Assembly (NCBI RefSeq): GCF_003018255.1
Contig: NZ_CP027440.1
DNA length: 64,000 nucleotides
Direction: 5' to 3' (one strand)
DNA from: Escherichia coli
GTDB taxonomy: Bacteria > Pseudomonadota > Gammaproteobacteria > Enterobacterales > Enterobacteriaceae
The notes below the pieces were generated by a model that searched no databases, had not been told where the DNA came from, and worked only from the letters and a program-made list of their open reading frames with translations. Made by a program: the position numbers and the translations under genes. This document shows, piece after piece, positions 1 through 16,741 of the stretch. Every line of letters begins with the position of its first letter. The stretch's first letter is position 1.

Positions 1-187
1 GCGCATCTTCACAATGGTGACAGGTCACGGCACTACGTTGCTGCTGATGTTTGATAACCGTAATTCGGGGATGAAAATGGTGTTGGCTCAGGACATGTTG
101 CTCATCATTGTGAGCCATGACACAGGCGATTTCACAAGCATGACAACCCAGACATTGCTGACTGTTGGCCATAATAAAACGATTCAT
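1..187 (-). CDS. aegA: Ferredoxin-like oxidoreductase AegA, 5' end only (gene continues beyond window start)
   Basis: Reverse-strand translation from the start codon at 185-187 gives MNRFIMANSQQCLGCHACEIAC..., with a CxxCxxCxxxC 4Fe-4S motif; divergent from narQ as in K-12. Missed by the ORF track because there is no in-window stop. Confidence 0.8.
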   Translation of the reverse strand, partial: MNRFIMANSQQCLGCHACEIACVMAHNDEQHVLSQHHFHPRITVIKHQQQRSAVTCHHCEDA

Positions 188-392
188 AACGACCTTCTTT
201 TTTGGTTGTAAAAACCTTATTCTTTATATGAGTGTTGTTATTACCCGACTTACAGGGGAATCGGCAATGTTCATGTGCCCAGAATAAGTAACTATTTCGC
301 TATAAACTGTGGCAGATCAAATAATCCCATCACTGACTAAATTGCGTTTCAGCGAATTGGAACATTAATGATTTTTTGTGGAGAAGACGCGT

Positions 393-2093
393 GTGATTGT
401 TAAACGACCCGTCTCGGCCAGTCTGGCCCGGGCCTTTTTTTACATTGTGCTGCTGTCGATTCTTTCCACGGGTATCGCTCTGCTAACGCTGGCGAGCAGT
501 TTACGCGACGCTGAGGCTATCAATATTGCCGGATCGCTGCGTATGCAGAGTTACCGCCTGGGCTACGACTTGCAAAGTGGCAGTCCACAACTCAATGCAC
601 ATCGCCAGTTATTTCAGCAGGCACTGCATTCACCGGTATTAACCAATCTCAACGTCTGGTATGTGCCAGAGGCAGTAAAAACCCGCTATGCGCATCTGAA
701 TGCCAACTGGCTGGAGATGAATAATCGGCTCAGCAAGGGCGACTTGCCGTGGTATCAGGCCAATATTAATAATTATGTTAATCAGATAGACCTGTTCGTG
801 CTGGCTTTACAGCACTACGCCGAACGCAAAATGCTGCTGGTGGTGGCGATCTCCCTGGCTGGCGGCATCGGTATTTTCACGCTGGTCTTTTTTACTTTGC
901 GCCGCATACGCCATCAGGTGGTTGCCCCGCTGAATCAGCTGGTTACCGCCAGTCAGCGTATTGAACACGGGCAGTTCGACTCGCCGCCGCTGGATACCAG
1001 CCTGCCGAATGAGCTTGGCCTGCTTGCAAAAACCTTTAACCAGATGTCGAGCGAGCTGCATAAATTGTACCGTTCGCTGGAGGCGTCAGTAGAAGAAAAG
1101 ACCCGCGATCTCCACGAGGCCAAGCGTCGTCTGGAGGTGTTGTATCAGTGTTCGCAGGCGCTAAACACCAGCCAGATTGATGTGCATTGTTTCCGCCATA
1201 TTTTGCAGATTGTTCGCGACAATGAAGCGGCTGAATATCTGGAGTTAAATGTCGGTGACAACTGGCGGATTAGCGAAGGGCAGCCAAACCCGGAATTGCC
1301 GATGCAGATTTTACCGGTGACAATGCAAGAGACGGTTTACGGCGAACTGCACTGGCAAAATAGTCACGTTTCATCATCAGAACCGCTGCTTAACAGTGTT
1401 TCGTCGATGCTGGGACGCGGTTTGTACTTTAATCAGGCGCAGAAGCATTTTCAGCAGTTATTGTTGATGGAAGAACGTGCGACCATCGCCCGCGAATTGC
1501 ACGACTCGCTGGCTCAGGTACTTTCTTACTTACGTATCCAGTTGACGTTACTGAAGCGTTCGATACCGGAAGATAACGCCACCGCACAAAGTATCATGGC
1601 CGATTTCTCCCAGGCGCTGAATGATGCTTATCGGCAGTTACGCGAGCTGTTAACTACTTTCCGCCTGACGCTGCAGCAGGCGGATCTCCCCTCCGCGTTG
1701 AGGGAAATGCTGGATACGTTACAAAATCAAACCAGCGCCAAACTGACCCTCGACTGCCGTCTGCCAACCCTGGCGCTGGATGCGCAAATGCAGGTGCATT
1801 TGTTGCAAATTATTCGCGAAGCGGTGCTGAATGCGATGAAGCACGCCAACGCCAGCGAAATCGCCGTTAGCTGCGTCACCGCGCCGGATGGCAATCACAC
1901 AGTCTATATTCGCGACAACGGGATTGGCATCGGTGAACCGAAAGAACCCGAAGGCCATTATGGTCTGAATATCATGCGCGAACGCGCGGAAAGATTGGGT
2001 GGGACGCTGACTTTTTCACAACCTTCCGGCGGCGGCACGTTAGTGAGTATTAGCTTTCGCTCTGCGGAGGGTGAGGAAAGTCAGCTGATGTAA
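393..2093 (+). CDS. narQ: Nitrate/nitrite sensor histidine kinase
   Basis: ORF 378..2093; two N-terminal hydrophobic segments, H-box ELHDSLAQ and C-terminal ATPase region. Likely GTG start at 393 (MIVKRP...) for a 566-aa product. Confidence 0.9.
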   Translation: MIVKRPVSASLARAFFYIVLLSILSTGIALLTLASSLRDAEAINIAGSLRMQSYRLGYDLQSGSPQLNAHRQLFQQALHSPVLTNLNVWYVPEAVKTRYAHLNANWLEMNNRLSKGDLPWYQANINNYVNQIDLFVLALQHYAERKMLLVVAISLAGGIGIFTLVFFTLRRIRHQVVAPLNQLVTASQRIEHGQFDSPPLDTSLPNELGLLAKTFNQMSSELHKLYRSLEASVEEKTRDLHEAKRRLEVLYQCSQALNTSQIDVHCFRHILQIVRDNEAAEYLELNVGDNWRISEGQPNPELPMQILPVTMQETVYGELHWQNSHVSSSEPLLNSVSSMLGRGLYFNQAQKHFQQLLLMEERATIARELHDSLAQVLSYLRIQLTLLKRSIPEDNATAQSIMADFSQALNDAYRQLRELLTTFRLTLQQADLPSALREMLDTLQNQTSAKLTLDCRLPTLALDAQMQVHLLQIIREAVLNAMKHANASEIAVSCVTAPDGNHTVYIRDNGIGIGEPKEPEGHYGLNIMRERAERLGGTLTFSQPSGGGTLVSISFRSAEGEESQLM

Positions 2094-2256
2094 TGCCTCT
2101 TATTGACCAAAGAATAGTGGCACTTAAGGTTCAGTATAAAAGGGCATGATAATTTACATTAACTCCTTTTTTTCTCCACGATTGGCTCGTACCTTGCCGC
2201 TACAGTGAAGCAAGTCAAGCCTACAACGATACGCAGAAACACGAGGTCCTCTTTTA

Positions 2257-5200
2257 ATGGCGAATTTCTTTATTGATCGCCCCATTTTTGCCTGGGTGCT
2301 GGCAATCCTGTTGTGTCTGACAGGTACCCTGGCGATTTTTTCATTGCCCGTTGAACAATACCCCGATCTCGCGCCACCGAATGTGCGAGTGACCGCTAAC
2401 TATCCCGGCGCATCGGCCCAGACGCTGGAAAACACCGTGACCCAGGTTATCGAGCAAAATATGACCGGCCTCGATAATCTCATGTATATGTCGTCTCAGA
2501 GCAGTGGCACCGGCCAGGCATCTGTCACTTTAAGTTTTAAAGCAGGCACCGATCCGGACGAAGCCGTGCAGCAAGTACAAAACCAGCTGCAATCAGCCAT
2601 GCGAAAGTTACCGCAGGCGGTGCAAAATCAGGGCGTGACGGTGCGTAAAACCGGCGATACCAATATTCTGACCATTGCCTTCGTCTCTACCGATGGTTCG
2701 ATGGATAAACAGGATATTGCCGATTACGTTGCCAGTAATATTCAGGACCCGTTAAGCCGCGTGAATGGCGTCGGGGATATCGATGCCTATGGTTCGCAAT
2801 ATTCCATGCGTATCTGGCTGGACCCGGCGAAACTCAACAGTTTCCAGATGACGGCTAAAGATGTCACTGATGCCATTGAGTCACAGAACGCGCAGATTGC
2901 GGTTGGGCAACTTGGTGGTACGCCTTCCGTCGATAAGCAGGCGCTCAACGCCACCATTAACGCCCAGTCACTGCTGCAAACACCAGAACAGTTCCGCGAT
3001 ATCACCTTGCGGGTGAATCAGGACGGTTCAGAGGTAAGGCTGGGCGATGTCGCCACCGTCGAAATGGGGGCGGAAAAATACGATTATCTTAGCCGCTTCA
3101 ATGGTAAGCCAGCCTCCGGGCTGGGGGTAAAACTGGCCTCCGGCGCGAACGAAATGGCGACTGCGCAGCTGGTGCTCAATCGTCTCGACGAGCTGGCGCA
3201 GTATTTTCCACACGGACTGGAATACAAGGTGGCGTATGAAACCACCTCGTTTGTTAAAGCCTCCATTGAAGACGTGGTGAAAACGCTGCTGGAAGCTATC
3301 GCTCTGGTTTTCCTCGTTATGTATCTGTTCCTGCAAAACTTCCGCGCCACGCTGATACCCACTATCGCCGTGCCGGTGGTGTTGATGGGAACCTTCTCCG
3401 TACTTTATGCCTTCGGTTACAGCGTCAACACCTTAACCATGTTCGCGATGGTGCTGGCGATCGGTCTGCTGGTGGATGATGCCATCGTGGTGGTGGAAAA
3501 CGTCGAACGTATTATGAGTGAGGAAGGACTCACTCCTCGCGAAGCCACACGTAAATCGATGGGGCAGATCCAGGGGGCACTGGTCGGGATTGCGATGGTG
3601 CTTTCGGCGGTATTTGTGCCAATGGCCTTCTTCGGCGGCACCACCGGTGCCATCTATCGCCAGTTCTCTATTACCATTGTTGCGGCGATGGTGCTGTCAG
3701 TACTGGTAGCGATGATCCTCACTCCGGCTCTGTGTGCCACGCTACTTAAGCCACTGAAAAAAGGTGAGCATCACGGGCAAAAAGGCTTTTTTGCCTGGTT
3801 TAACCAGATGTTTAACCGCAACGCCGAACGCTACGAAAAAGGGGTGGCGAAAATTCTCCACCGTAGCCTGCGCTGGATTGTGATTTATGTCCTGCTGCTT
3901 GGCGGCATGGTGTTCCTGTTCCTGCGTTTGCCGACGTCGTTCTTGCCACTTGAAGACCGTGGCATGTTTACTACCTCGGTACAGTTGCCCAGCGGTTCAA
4001 CCCAACAACAGACCCTGAAAGTCGTTGAGCAAATCGAGAAATACTACTTCACCCATGAAAAAGACAACATCATGTCGGTGTTTGCCACTGTTGGTTCTGG
4101 CCCTGGGGGTAACGGGCAAAACGTGGCGAGAATGTTTATCCGCCTGAAAGACTGGAGCGAACGCGACAGTAAGACCGGCACCTCGTTTGCCATTATCGAG
4201 CGTGCAACGAAGGCGTTTAACAAGATTAAAGAAGCTCGCGTTATCGCCAGCAGCCCGCCAGCAATTAGCGGTCTTGGTAGTTCTGCAGGTTTTGATATGG
4301 AGTTGCAGGACCACGCTGGAGCGGGTCACGATGCGCTGATGGCAGCACGTAACCAGTTGCTGGCGCTGGCGGCGGAAAACCCGGAGCTAACCCGTGTGCG
4401 CCATAACGGCCTCGACGACAGTCCGCAGTTGCAGATTGATATCGACCAGCGTAAAGCTCAGGCGCTGGGCGTTGCTATCGACGATATTAACGACACACTG
4501 CAAACCGCCTGGGGTTCGAGCTATGTGAATGACTTTATGGATCGCGGTCGCGTGAAGAAAGTCTATGTGCAGGCAGCTGCGCCGTATCGCATGCTGCCAG
4601 ATGACATCAATCTCTGGTATGTCCGAAATAAAGATGGCGGCATGGTGCCCTTCTCTGCTTTCGCGACCTCACGCTGGGAGACAGGCTCGCCGCGTCTGGA
4701 ACGCTATAACGGTTATTCTGCGGTAGAGATTGTAGGGGAAGCCGCACCGGGGGTCAGTACCGGTACGGCGATGGATATTATGGAATCGTTAGTGAAGCAG
4801 TTGCCAAACGGCTTTGGTCTGGAGTGGACGGCGATGTCGTATCAGGAGCGGCTTTCCGGCGCGCAGGCTCCGGCGCTGTACGCCATTTCCTTGCTGGTGG
4901 TATTCCTGTGTCTTGCGGCGTTGTATGAAAGCTGGTCGGTGCCGTTCTCGGTAATGCTGGTCGTGCCGCTGGGGGTTATCGGCGCGCTGCTGGCAACCTG
5001 GATGCGCGGGCTGGAAAACGACGTTTACTTCCAGGTGGGCCTGTTAACGGTCATTGGTTTATCGGCGAAAAACGCCATCCTGATCGTCGAGTTTGCTAAC
5101 GAGATGAACCAAAAAGGCCACGACCTGTTTGAAGCGACGCTCCACGCCTGCCGTCAGCGTTTACGCCCGATTCTGATGACTTCGCTGGCATTTATCTTCG

Positions 5201-14538: not shown

Positions 14539-15111
14539 TTGACACTGTCATCGCAACATTATCTGGTGATCACTGCGTTGGGTGCCGATCGCCCTGGAAT
14601 TGTGAACACCATCACCCGTCATGTCAGTAGTTGCGGCTGTAATATTGAAGACAGTCGCCTGGCGATGCTGGGAGAAGAGTTCACGTTTATCATGCTGCTT
14701 TCCGGTTCATGGAATGCCATTACTCTGATTGAATCAACGTTACCGTTGAAAGGTGCCGAGCTGGATCTTTTAATCGTGATGAAGCGCACGACGGCGCGTC
14801 CGCGTCCGCCAATGCCAGCATCTGTCTGGGTTCAGGTCGATGTGGCAGACTCCCCGCATTTAATTGAACGCTTCACAGCACTTTTCGACGCGCATCATAT
14901 GAACATTGCGGAGCTGGTGTCGCGCACGCAACCTGCTGAAAATGAACGGGCTGCGCAGTTGCATATTCAGATAACCGCCCACAGCCCCGCATCTGCGGAC
15001 GCAGCAAATATTGAGCAAGCATTCAAAGCCCTATGTACAGAACTCAATGCACAAGGCAGTATTAACGTCGTCAATTATTCCCAACATGATGAACAGGATG
15101 GAGTTAAGTAA
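14539..15111 (+). CDS. gcvR: Glycine cleavage system transcriptional repressor (ACT domains)
   Basis: ORF track begins at 14473, but the conserved protein begins at LTLSSQHYLVITALGADRPGIV; probable TTG start at 14539 giving 190 aa. Stop overlaps the bcp start (TAATG). Confidence 0.8.
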   Translation: MTLSSQHYLVITALGADRPGIVNTITRHVSSCGCNIEDSRLAMLGEEFTFIMLLSGSWNAITLIESTLPLKGAELDLLIVMKRTTARPRPPMPASVWVQVDVADSPHLIERFTALFDAHHMNIAELVSRTQPAENERAAQLHIQITAHSPASADAANIEQAFKALCTELNAQGSINVVNYSQHDEQDGVK

Positions 15112-15581
15112 TGAATCCACTGAAAGCCGGTGATATCGCACCGAAATTTAGCTTGCCGGATCAAGACGGAGAACAAGTTAATTTGACCGACTTCCAGGGA
15201 CAGCGTGTTCTGGTTTATTTCTACCCGAAAGCCATGACCCCCGGCTGTACCGTACAGGCCTGCGGCTTACGCGATAACATGGATGAGTTGAAAAAAGCGG
15301 GCGTTGATGTGCTGGGTATCAGCACCGATAAACCCGAAAAACTCTCCCGTTTTGCGGAAAAAGAGCTGCTTAACTTTACGCTCCTGTCTGATGAGGACCA
15401 CCAGGTGTGCGAACAATTCGGCGTCTGGGGTGAAAAGTCCTTCATGGGCAAAACCTACGATGGTATTCATCGCATCAGCTTCCTGATTGACGCTGATGGC
15501 AAAATCGAACATGTCTTTGACGATTTCAAAACCAGCAATCACCACGACGTTGTGCTGAACTGGCTGAAAGAACACGCCTGA
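15111..15581 (+). CDS. bcp: Thiol peroxidase / peroxiredoxin Bcp
   Basis: 156 aa; peroxidatic cysteine motif FYPKAMTPGCT. Confidence 0.92.
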   Translation: MNPLKAGDIAPKFSLPDQDGEQVNLTDFQGQRVLVYFYPKAMTPGCTVQACGLRDNMDELKKAGVDVLGISTDKPEKLSRFAEKELLNFTLLSDEDHQVCEQFGVWGEKSFMGKTYDGIHRISFLIDADGKIEHVFDDFKTSNHHDVVLNWLKEHA

Positions 15582-15679
15582 TTACTTTGCTCCATTCCGT
15601 GCTGGCTGCGCTTGCGGCCAGCACATCTCACATCTTCTCACTGCCCTGCAACACTCGTTTCAAATTTTTTCGCTGAAGG

Positions 15680-16741
15680 TCAGTCTTGCGCGATTTGCCC
15701 ATCGGGCCAGGCGTGAATCACGGCTTTGATCAGCGTCGCCAATGGAATGGCGAAGAATACGCCCCAGAATCCCCACAAACCACCGAAGATCACTACTGAT
15801 AAAATAATGACCAGCGGATGCAGGTTAACCGCTTCGGAGAACAACACAGGTACTAACAGGTTGCCGTCCAGCGCCTGAATGATCAGATACACCGCGAAGC
15901 AGCTCCAGAATTCCGTGCCAGCACCAAACTGGAATAGCGCCACGCCAACCACCGGAATGGTCACCACAAATGCACCAATGTACGGAATAAGTACCGAGAA
16001 GCCGACCAGCACCGCCAGCAGCAGCGAATAGTTCAGCCCGAAGAGTAAGAATCCCAGCCAGGTGGCAATCCCCACCACGATCATCTCCAGCACTTTGCCG
16101 CGGATATAGTTGGTGATTTGTTGATTCATCTCCTTCCACACCTGTCCTGCCAGTCCACGGTTACGCGGCAGCACCCGGCGAACGGCGTTCAGCATCTGCT
16201 CTTTGTCTTTCAGCAGGAAGAAGACCATCAATGGTACCAGCACCAGATAGACGGCAATGGTCAGCAAACCGACCAGCGAGGCGAGGGAAATTTTCACCAC
16301 CGAATCGCCCATGGTCAGCATCCGACTGCGCATATTTTCGGCCATTGCATCAATAATGCCCGCATCCATTAACGCCGGATAGCGGCGCGGCAACGTGGCG
16401 GCAAAGTCAGAAAGCTTATTGAGCATCCCCGGCATATCGCGGATTAAGTAGATGCCCTGCTGCCAGGCGATAGGCAGTACCACGAACGCCATCAGTAGCA
16501 ATATACCGACGAAAACCACCAATACAATCGACGTCGCCCAGCGGCGGGAGCAGCCAATAGATTGCAGGCGCACGGTTGGCCATTCCAGCAAATAGGCCAG
16601 CACAATAGCCACCAACAGCGGAGCAAGCAGGCCACTAAAGAAAAAGATAATGCCAAATCCGGCAACTAAAATAACCAGCAAGGCAATCGCTTCCGGGTCG
16701 CTAAAACGGCGGCGATACCATTGCATCAACATTTCGAGCAT
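15680..16741 (-). CDS. perM: AI-2E family inner membrane permease PerM (YfgO)
   Basis: 353 aa, polytopic membrane protein; follows bcp directly in this strain. Confidence 0.85.
   Translation of the reverse strand: MLEMLMQWYRRRFSDPEAIALLVILVAGFGIIFFFSGLLAPLLVAIVLAYLLEWPTVRLQSIGCSRRWATSIVLVVFVGILLLMAFVVLPIAWQQGIYLIRDMPGMLNKLSDFAATLPRRYPALMDAGIIDAMAENMRSRMLTMGDSVVKISLASLVGLLTIAVYLVLVPLMVFFLLKDKEQMLNAVRRVLPRNRGLAGQVWKEMNQQITNYIRGKVLEMIVVGIATWLGFLLFGLNYSLLLAVLVGFSVLIPYIGAFVVTIPVVGVALFQFGAGTEFWSCFAVYLIIQALDGNLLVPVLFSEAVNLHPLVIILSVVIFGGLWGFWGVFFAIPLATLIKAVIHAWPDGQIAQD

Follow-up and report, generated by a model that had tools for sequence, protein, structure and literature searches.

The presence or absence of the hyf operon in Escherichia coli is an already published polymorphism. 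Gonzalez-Alba et al. (2019) reported that “the FGB2 lineage lost ... the hyf operon” (PMC6896753), and the Hyf system was found to be negatively associated with B2 strains (Touchon et al., 2020; PMC7314097). That ExPEC-rich lineages are without hydrogenase-4 and FocB is an established marker of metabolic difference between E. coli phylogroups. Homologous hyf genes are found in the FHL-2 loci of Pectobacterium atrosepticum and Trabulsiella guamensis, with HyfR homologues that are 50-74% identical, and the Pectobacterium hyf genes lie within a large hydrogen-metabolism cluster together with hyp, fdhF and hyfK (PMC7384014; PMC7654741; bioRxiv 10.1101/563510). The hyf type of E. coli, Citrobacter amalonaticus, Kluyvera and Enterobacter sp. 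Bisph1 differs from that of Pectobacterium in that it lies between bcp and perM and ends with focB. In K-12, FHL-2 is poorly expressed and is without the dedicated partners found in Pectobacterium (PMC7384014; PMC7654741), and for these reasons the loss of hyf is plausibly near-neutral.

We examined this site in a 64-kb stretch of E. coli DNA, hereafter the window, which shares both the locus and the hyf-absent state with the published polymorphism, so that little changes for the window as far as the marker itself is concerned. The earlier studies were confined to gene content and placed a loss in the FGB2 lineage (PMC6896753; PMC7314097), whereas here the junction was read, and its footprint is common to Escherichia albertii. 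We consider it likely, with a probability of about 0.7, that the spacer between bcp and perM marks where one old deletion took out ~13.75 kb, corresponding to the 13.7-kb hyf-focB block of K-12, between short imperfect direct repeats. What is new is a modest evolutionary refinement at the level of the junction, and it is of modest interest for E. coli pangenome history and for formate hydrogenlyase-2 research.

In K-12 MG1655 the gene order is bcp-hyfABCDEFGHIJR-focB-yfgO, as the preliminary description of the window had stated, and bcp and perM are not adjacent. The window has a 98-bp gap in this place, and the open reading frames agree with the distance given earlier between the bcp and perM stops. 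The features of the locus are the following:

15111 to 15581, + strand: bcp (thioredoxin-dependent thiol peroxidase), intact; Bcp has 100% amino acid identity with K-12
15582 to 15679, no strand: convergent bcp-perM spacer, hyf-negative allele, 98 bp; collinear over its full length with that of E. albertii
15599 to 15624, + strand: bcp 3′ hairpin, with stem arms at 15599-15609 and 15614-15624 and a GCUU loop
15625 to 15671, + strand: putative relic of the hyf regulatory region (upstream part), by homology to the K-12 bcp-hyfA intergenic region
15672 to 15678, + strand: GCTGAAG, the lone surviving direct-repeat copy and predicted deletion junction, by comparison with the K-12 flanking repeats
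15680 to 16741, - strand: perM/yfgO (AI-2E family transporter), intact

The perM product ends ...AQD-TGA in the window and in E. albertii, and ...AQE-TAA in hyf-positive strains. E. coli JNE23-011 is 100% identical to the window over the region, and its annotation reads gcvR-bcp-yfgO-bepA. A tblastn search with all K-12 Hyf and FocB proteins found no Hyf or FocB coding sequence in the 64-kb window, in line with the absence of hyf-focB noted earlier, and the strain is without hydrogenase-4/FHL-2 and without FocB. The sole match of this protein set was a ferredoxin domain at window 2-187 (- strand), at the left window edge, with weak similarity to HyfA (40% over 62 aa); it was rejected as a hyf remnant, and its position corresponds to aegA in JNE23-011. 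JNE23-011 also has, downstream of xseA, a gene of ~8 kb for an “adhesion domain-containing protein” (NZ_AP045067.1 3213365-3221416; L002:41405-41651), which is the sinH-like island of the preliminary description and corresponds to window ~36500 onward.

The contiguous bcp-perM junction is present in 1,126 of 5,426 complete E. coli genomes, and the junction match in the remaining genomes breaks at window ~15672. The hyfG gene was found in 4,295 of the same genomes, always in one copy and always on the chromosome. The two sets sum to 5,421 and are essentially complementary, with a hyf-negative share of ~21% and some 4-5 genomes in neither set. Since hyfG is always a single chromosomal copy and the sets are complementary, hyf has not been relocated elsewhere, and the transposition that the preliminary description had allowed for left no sign in the hyfG search of these 5,426 genomes. 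ST131, a B2 lineage, is also hyf-negative and is 98.4% identical to the window across the junction. The closest relatives at the locus are APEC/ExPEC-type strains at 99.5%, for example an O78:H4 APEC. The strain belongs to a non-K-12 lineage, as suggested earlier.

The inverted repeat described earlier at 15599-15624 (GTGCTGGC...GCCAGCAC) is present there and can be lengthened to a stem of 11 bp closed by a GCUU loop; the hairpin lies 17 nt past the bcp stop. On the bcp-sense strand the fold has a dG of -22.9 kcal/mol (z -5.5), and it is weaker on the perM-sense strand, where a U.G pair becomes an A.C mismatch. The hairpin is kept 17 nt after bcp in the hyf-positive strains K-12, O157 and Ec-U18, either unchanged or with G-C to G.U changes, and E. 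albertii keeps it via one compensatory pair (U-A to C-G). Across the hairpin alignment 98.7% of cells are paired, a figure from n=7 sequences, for which covariation statistics are weak. Because the repeat is present with or without hyf, it is assigned to bcp as a hairpin; its interpretation as a scar of the hyf event was rejected, as it lies wholly on the bcp side and is found in the occupied sites of K-12 and O157.

As a strong GC-rich hairpin kept by pair-preserving changes, this element resembles the intrinsic terminators and 3′ stabilising hairpins that lie between convergent genes. Other genera have a terminator hairpin at the same place, and most of those sampled show a bidirectional form of A-run, hairpin and T-run, whereas the window hairpin is without a U-tract on either strand, the tails 3′ of the stem being AUCUCACAUC on the + strand and GGAAUGGAGC on the - strand. 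The element has the GC-rich stem-loop of a canonical intrinsic terminator and lacks its U-tract. A scan for intrinsic terminators returned 0 sites in 15400-15900, no Rfam family matched the spacer, and a promoter scan of the spacer gave nothing meaningful. Only 1 copy of the hairpin occurs in the 64-kb window with up to 3 mismatches allowed, the window alone being searched, and the multiple dispersed copies typical of REP/BIME elements do not appear within it. The hairpin is probably an mRNA 3′-end or stabiliser element, on which the bcp and perM transcripts would now converge.

Beyond the hairpin, the spacer ends in 55 bp that represent the upstream part of the hyf regulatory region in degraded form, with half of a CRP-like palindrome, a broken second palindrome and TTTTTTCGCTGAA. 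Aligned with the upstream portion of the K-12 sequence between bcp and hyfA, positions 15625-15679 give a local score of 37, against 15 ± 2.4 for shuffled sequences (0 of 2000 reaching 37). Because of this significant homology, we read 15625-15679 as a non-coding remnant of the hyf locus, consisting of regulatory DNA rather than a gene. The preliminary description had seen no gene remnants in the spacer, which holds for coding sequence and fails for this stretch of presumed regulatory DNA. No similarity of this kind was found in control empty spacers of other genera.

Common to the hyf-positive intergenic regions of four genera are the bcp terminator hairpin, the CRP-like palindrome, a CGACAC-N3-TGYCGA palindrome and a sigma54-like TGGCA...TTATGC. 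The CRP-like palindrome matches the consensus TGTGA-N6-TCACA at 10 of 10 positions in C. amalonaticus and Kluyvera and at 9 of 10 in K-12. The putative CRP and enhancer sites were assigned by consensus matching and by reference to sites that Self et al. (2004) and Skibinski et al. (2002) reportedly described. The relic retains the right half of the CRP-like palindrome, TCACA, at 15628-15632. Its second palindrome, CAACACTCGTTTCAA at 15649-15663, is a degenerate copy of CGACAC-N3-TGYCGAA, and its counterpart in the E. albertii spacer, also degenerate, reads CGACACTCGTTTCAA; in the window a T6 run follows at 15665-15670. There is no sigma54 promoter in the relic, only the distal part of the hyf upstream region remaining, in degraded form, and the relic is predicted to be non-functional as a hyf regulatory region.

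The comparison with the K-12 junctions that had been proposed for the spacer also locates the breakpoints. The whole spacer can be aligned with ~120 bp at the start of the K-12 region between bcp and hyfA, as far as TTTTTTGCTGAA; the homology with K-12 then picks up again at GCTGAAG, 7 nt ahead of the perM stop. In K-12 the hyf-focB block is flanked by imperfect 13-bp direct repeats, GCTGAACGTTAAT (L001:2562) within the hyf upstream regulatory region and GCTGAAGATTATT (L001:16313) overlapping the perM stop codon. They lie 13,751 bp apart and are identical at 10 of 13 positions, the first 6 exactly, a level reached by 56 of 200,000 random 13-mer pairs (2.8e-4 per pair). These repeats stand at both ends of the block in K-12, and one copy is found in the window, at 15672-15678. 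The breakpoint lies inside a block conserved between the hyf loci of E. coli and C. amalonaticus, and CTGAACGTTAATGACCATCAYTTTTGT, common to the K-12 and C. amalonaticus hyf intergenic regions, spans it.

Spontaneous deletions in lacI, in the work of Albertini et al. from 1982, reportedly occur between short direct repeats. The likeness to deletions of this type is that one copy is left at the junction while two flank the deleted block; the differences are that here the event is ancient, the repeats are imperfect and the mechanism is read from anatomy alone. The K-12 block contains no integrase or transposase genes, only hyf and focB being annotated, and there is no tRNA within 10 kb. The GC content of hyf-focB is 0.538, compared with 0.500 and 0.533 in the flanks, so its composition is not atypical. 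By these features, the block does not resemble a mobile genomic island, nor the junction an excision scar.

In the deletion that we favour, illegitimate or slipped recombination between the 13-bp repeats, a mechanism we infer from the anatomy, would have removed twelve genes (hyfA-R and focB), the core hyf promoter and the focB/perM terminator. It would have left perM with an in-frame stop, TGA here and TAA in hyf-positive strains, and a residue made up of the bcp hairpin followed by ~55 bp of far-upstream hyf regulatory DNA. The remnant would have decayed afterwards, the CRP-like palindrome being halved and the second palindrome broken. The relic resembles the E. coli hyf-positive region far more than the latter resembles that of C. 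amalonaticus, and both of these hyf-positive regions have the complete motifs, which points strongly to descent from a hyf-positive ancestor by deletion. On this evidence, the loss of an operon can leave regulatory DNA behind as a datable fossil.

The age of the event may be judged from how divergence is distributed along the spacer. In the first 43 nt, the window has 1 difference from K-12 and 8 from E. albertii. The next 55 nt show 10 mismatches and 23 gap columns (four indels) against K-12, compared with 8 mismatches and 1 gap against E. albertii, and the relic stands at about equal distance from the E. coli hyf-positive sequence and from E. albertii. The empty sites of E. albertii and of four diverse E. 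coli have the same boundaries and the same derived states (ACTCGTTTCAA and loss of the left CRP half-site). Since the deletion allele is common to E. albertii and all sampled hyf-negative E. coli, it would predate E. coli diversification. It seems to stem from one old event that goes back roughly to the split between E. coli and E. albertii, a dating that is very imprecise with ~10 substitutions in a 55-bp relic. As far as the hairpin, the E. coli flanks seem to have been made uniform by recombination since then. Given one footprint that is common to E. albertii and deeply diverged from the hyf-positive allele, the loss of hyf appears older than the FGB2 lineage, and gene-content reconstructions that place it inside E. 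coli may mis-date it.

A wider proposal, which we hold at even odds, is that E. coli carries two anciently diverged bcp/perM alleles, a hyf-positive one from an enterobacterial ancestor that already had hyf in this place and a deletion allele with a 55-bp fossil common to E. albertii, at a site that repeatedly gains and loses cargo. The coexistence of both alleles in E. coli would reflect either a long-lived, trans-species polymorphism or old introgression. If so, the hydrogenase-4 “loss” of B2/F/G would not be a loss within E. coli.

Introgression would mean that E. coli received one of the two alleles, deletion or hyf-positive, from another Escherichia lineage through homologous recombination, the crossovers falling near the bcp hairpin and at the perM 3′ end. 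The polymorphism would in that case not have been kept since before speciation. This concerns the origin of the E. coli polymorphism and is compatible with a deletion origin of the footprint, and we regard it as a tentative possibility, at somewhat less than even odds. It is consistent with the sharp identity cliff that falls exactly at the hairpin. The 3′-terminal ~300 bp of perM (window 15680-15980) are 94.5-95.5% identical to K-12 and O157, 96.5% to ST131 and 97-99% to the hyf-positive Ec-U18, while the remaining flanks are 98-100% identical among E. coli haplotypes; this mosaic divergence at the perM 3′ end, 94.5-99% among E. coli haplotypes, has no link to hyf state and also fits an exchange. 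However, no donor lineage was identified, the divergence of the relic from E. albertii (~16%) fits vertical descent equally well, and the sequences are too short for formal recombination tests.

A third arrangement of the site is seen in “E. coli” SCPM-O-B-8794 (L004:11063-11124), a separate GTDB species representative whose flanks are only 93-95% identical to E. coli at the nucleotide level, which marks it as a cryptic-clade Escherichia. It has no hyf, and its 62-bp spacer consists of the hairpin and ATTTCACTTCCGCTGAAGA, followed by the hyf-positive-type perM end GATTA with a TAA stop. The pairing of a shorter, empty spacer with a hyf-positive-type perM end is a further point in favour of introgression, and the spacer is derivable equally well from the relic or from the hyf-positive allele. 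Outside E. coli, where the scan of the locus covered E. albertii and one cryptic-clade genome, hyf was seen in no Escherichia; two HyfR homologues, at 93% and 79% identity, were considered as non-coli Escherichia and rejected, the sources being poor-quality E. coli assemblies with 97-99% nucleotide identity.

Another explanation is that the site was never occupied. The window would then keep the pre-insertion spacer, and hyf-focB would have inserted later in the ancestor of the E. coli lineages outside B2/F/G, duplicating a 7-13 bp target (GCTGAA...), which would account for the direct repeats around the K-12 block. A scan with PerM, limited to a single genome for each species, gave 80 loci, and in ~55 of them perM-bcp-gcvR-dapA stand directly next to each other, ranging from E. 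albertii, with its collinear spacer, to Yersinia, Serratia and Proteus, and also to Vibrio and Photobacterium. Such a spread favours an empty site, and bcp-perM adjacency is the deep ancestral gene order of Enterobacterales and Vibrionaceae, so that an insertion must also have its place somewhere in the history of the locus. The order dapA-gcvR-bcp-hyfA..R-focB-perM-bepA is found in Enterobacter sp. Bisph1, C. amalonaticus and Kluyvera, a soil MAG also has hyf-focB between bcp and perM in the same orientation, and hyf occupies the exact bcp/perM site in at least four genera. The hyf genes of Bisph1, C. amalonaticus and Kluyvera are 64-80% identical to K-12 at the nucleotide level and the core flanks 77-89%, which argues against a recent transfer and for old occupancy of the site; HyfR identity drops stepwise with taxonomic distance.

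The spacer itself speaks against a site that was never occupied, as it contains degraded hyf-specific regulatory motifs that are conserved in four hyf-positive genera, and its breakpoint falls inside the block common to K-12 and C. amalonaticus. Most other sampled Enterobacteriaceae have, unlike Escherichia, empty sites made of canonical bidirectional terminators of 36-100 bp, commonly AAAAAGCCGAC-loop-GTCGGCTTTTT, and the hyf block is without the mobility genes, tRNA neighbour or GC deviation (0.538 against 0.50-0.53) of an inserted element. We therefore consider a never-occupied site improbable, and our initial reading of the window as an ancestral empty site was rejected once three other genera were seen to carry hyf in this position and homology between the spacer and hyf regulatory DNA had become evident. 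A possible homology between the K-12 focB-perM hairpin and the ancestral AAAAAGCCGAC terminator was dropped as not significant, the comparison giving only one 8-mer match with p ~0.02 before correction for six tests.

A recent clean deletion within E. coli, from a K-12-like haplotype in the F/G/B2 ancestor or in the lineage of this strain, is very unlikely: it would agree with the loss scored in the FGB2 lineage (PMC6896753), the 13-bp repeats would permit such an event, and bcp and the spacer's first 43 nt hardly differ from K-12, but past the hairpin the spacer is ~18% and four indels away from each of the three hyf-positive E. coli sampled, well beyond the divergence usual within E. coli, E. 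albertii, with its identically placed footprint, is no more distant from the spacer than they are, and the derived states (ACTCGTTTCAA, lost left CRP half) are common to E. albertii and the E. coli empty sites. Of the two options offered in the preliminary description, an ancestral empty site or a clean deletion, it is thus deletion that is favoured, but as an old event with a footprint common to E. albertii and not as a recent clean excision.

Other cargo is found at the same site. About 2.6 kb lies between bcp and perM in Citrobacter werkmanii, C. youngae and Citrobacter sp. FP75, which in C. werkmanii (L005:11060-13650) comprises two membrane proteins and an amidohydrolase-like ORF. The perM/bcp site holds 7.7 kb in Pluralibacter gergoviae, 8 kb including a sigma54-type activator in Klebsiella sp. 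BIGb0407, and 1-1.6 kb in Providencia and Moellerella. Besides L005, these cargo-bearing perM/bcp loci are L006, L007, L019, L020, L029, L048 and L049. No hyf remnants were found in the cargo of Citrobacter, Pluralibacter, Klebsiella sp., Providencia or Moellerella. The perM/bcp spacer appears from this distribution to be a recurrent insertion spot.

Among hyf-positive strains, the hyf genes themselves vary. K-12 HyfG (L001:9988-11655) is 555 aa long and is without a 16-residue segment, ARDYSPVGPLIRGSGF, its gene having an in-frame 48-bp deletion between ARD..ARD repeats. The segment is highly conserved across genera, and is kept in O157 (571 aa; L087:9501-11216) and in C. amalonaticus and Bisph1 (575 aa; L095:10642-12369 and L088:12242-13969). 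The short form of HyfG is also present in other hyf-positive strains, for example 97-3250 and OkiPb01691, as a single 1668-bp BLAST piece. The absence of this segment might bear on the “silent” hydrogenase-4 of K-12. In E. coli O157:H7 TB21-1 (L087:12962-14960), hyfR is annotated as frameshifted (pseudogene), and the other hyf genes are intact.
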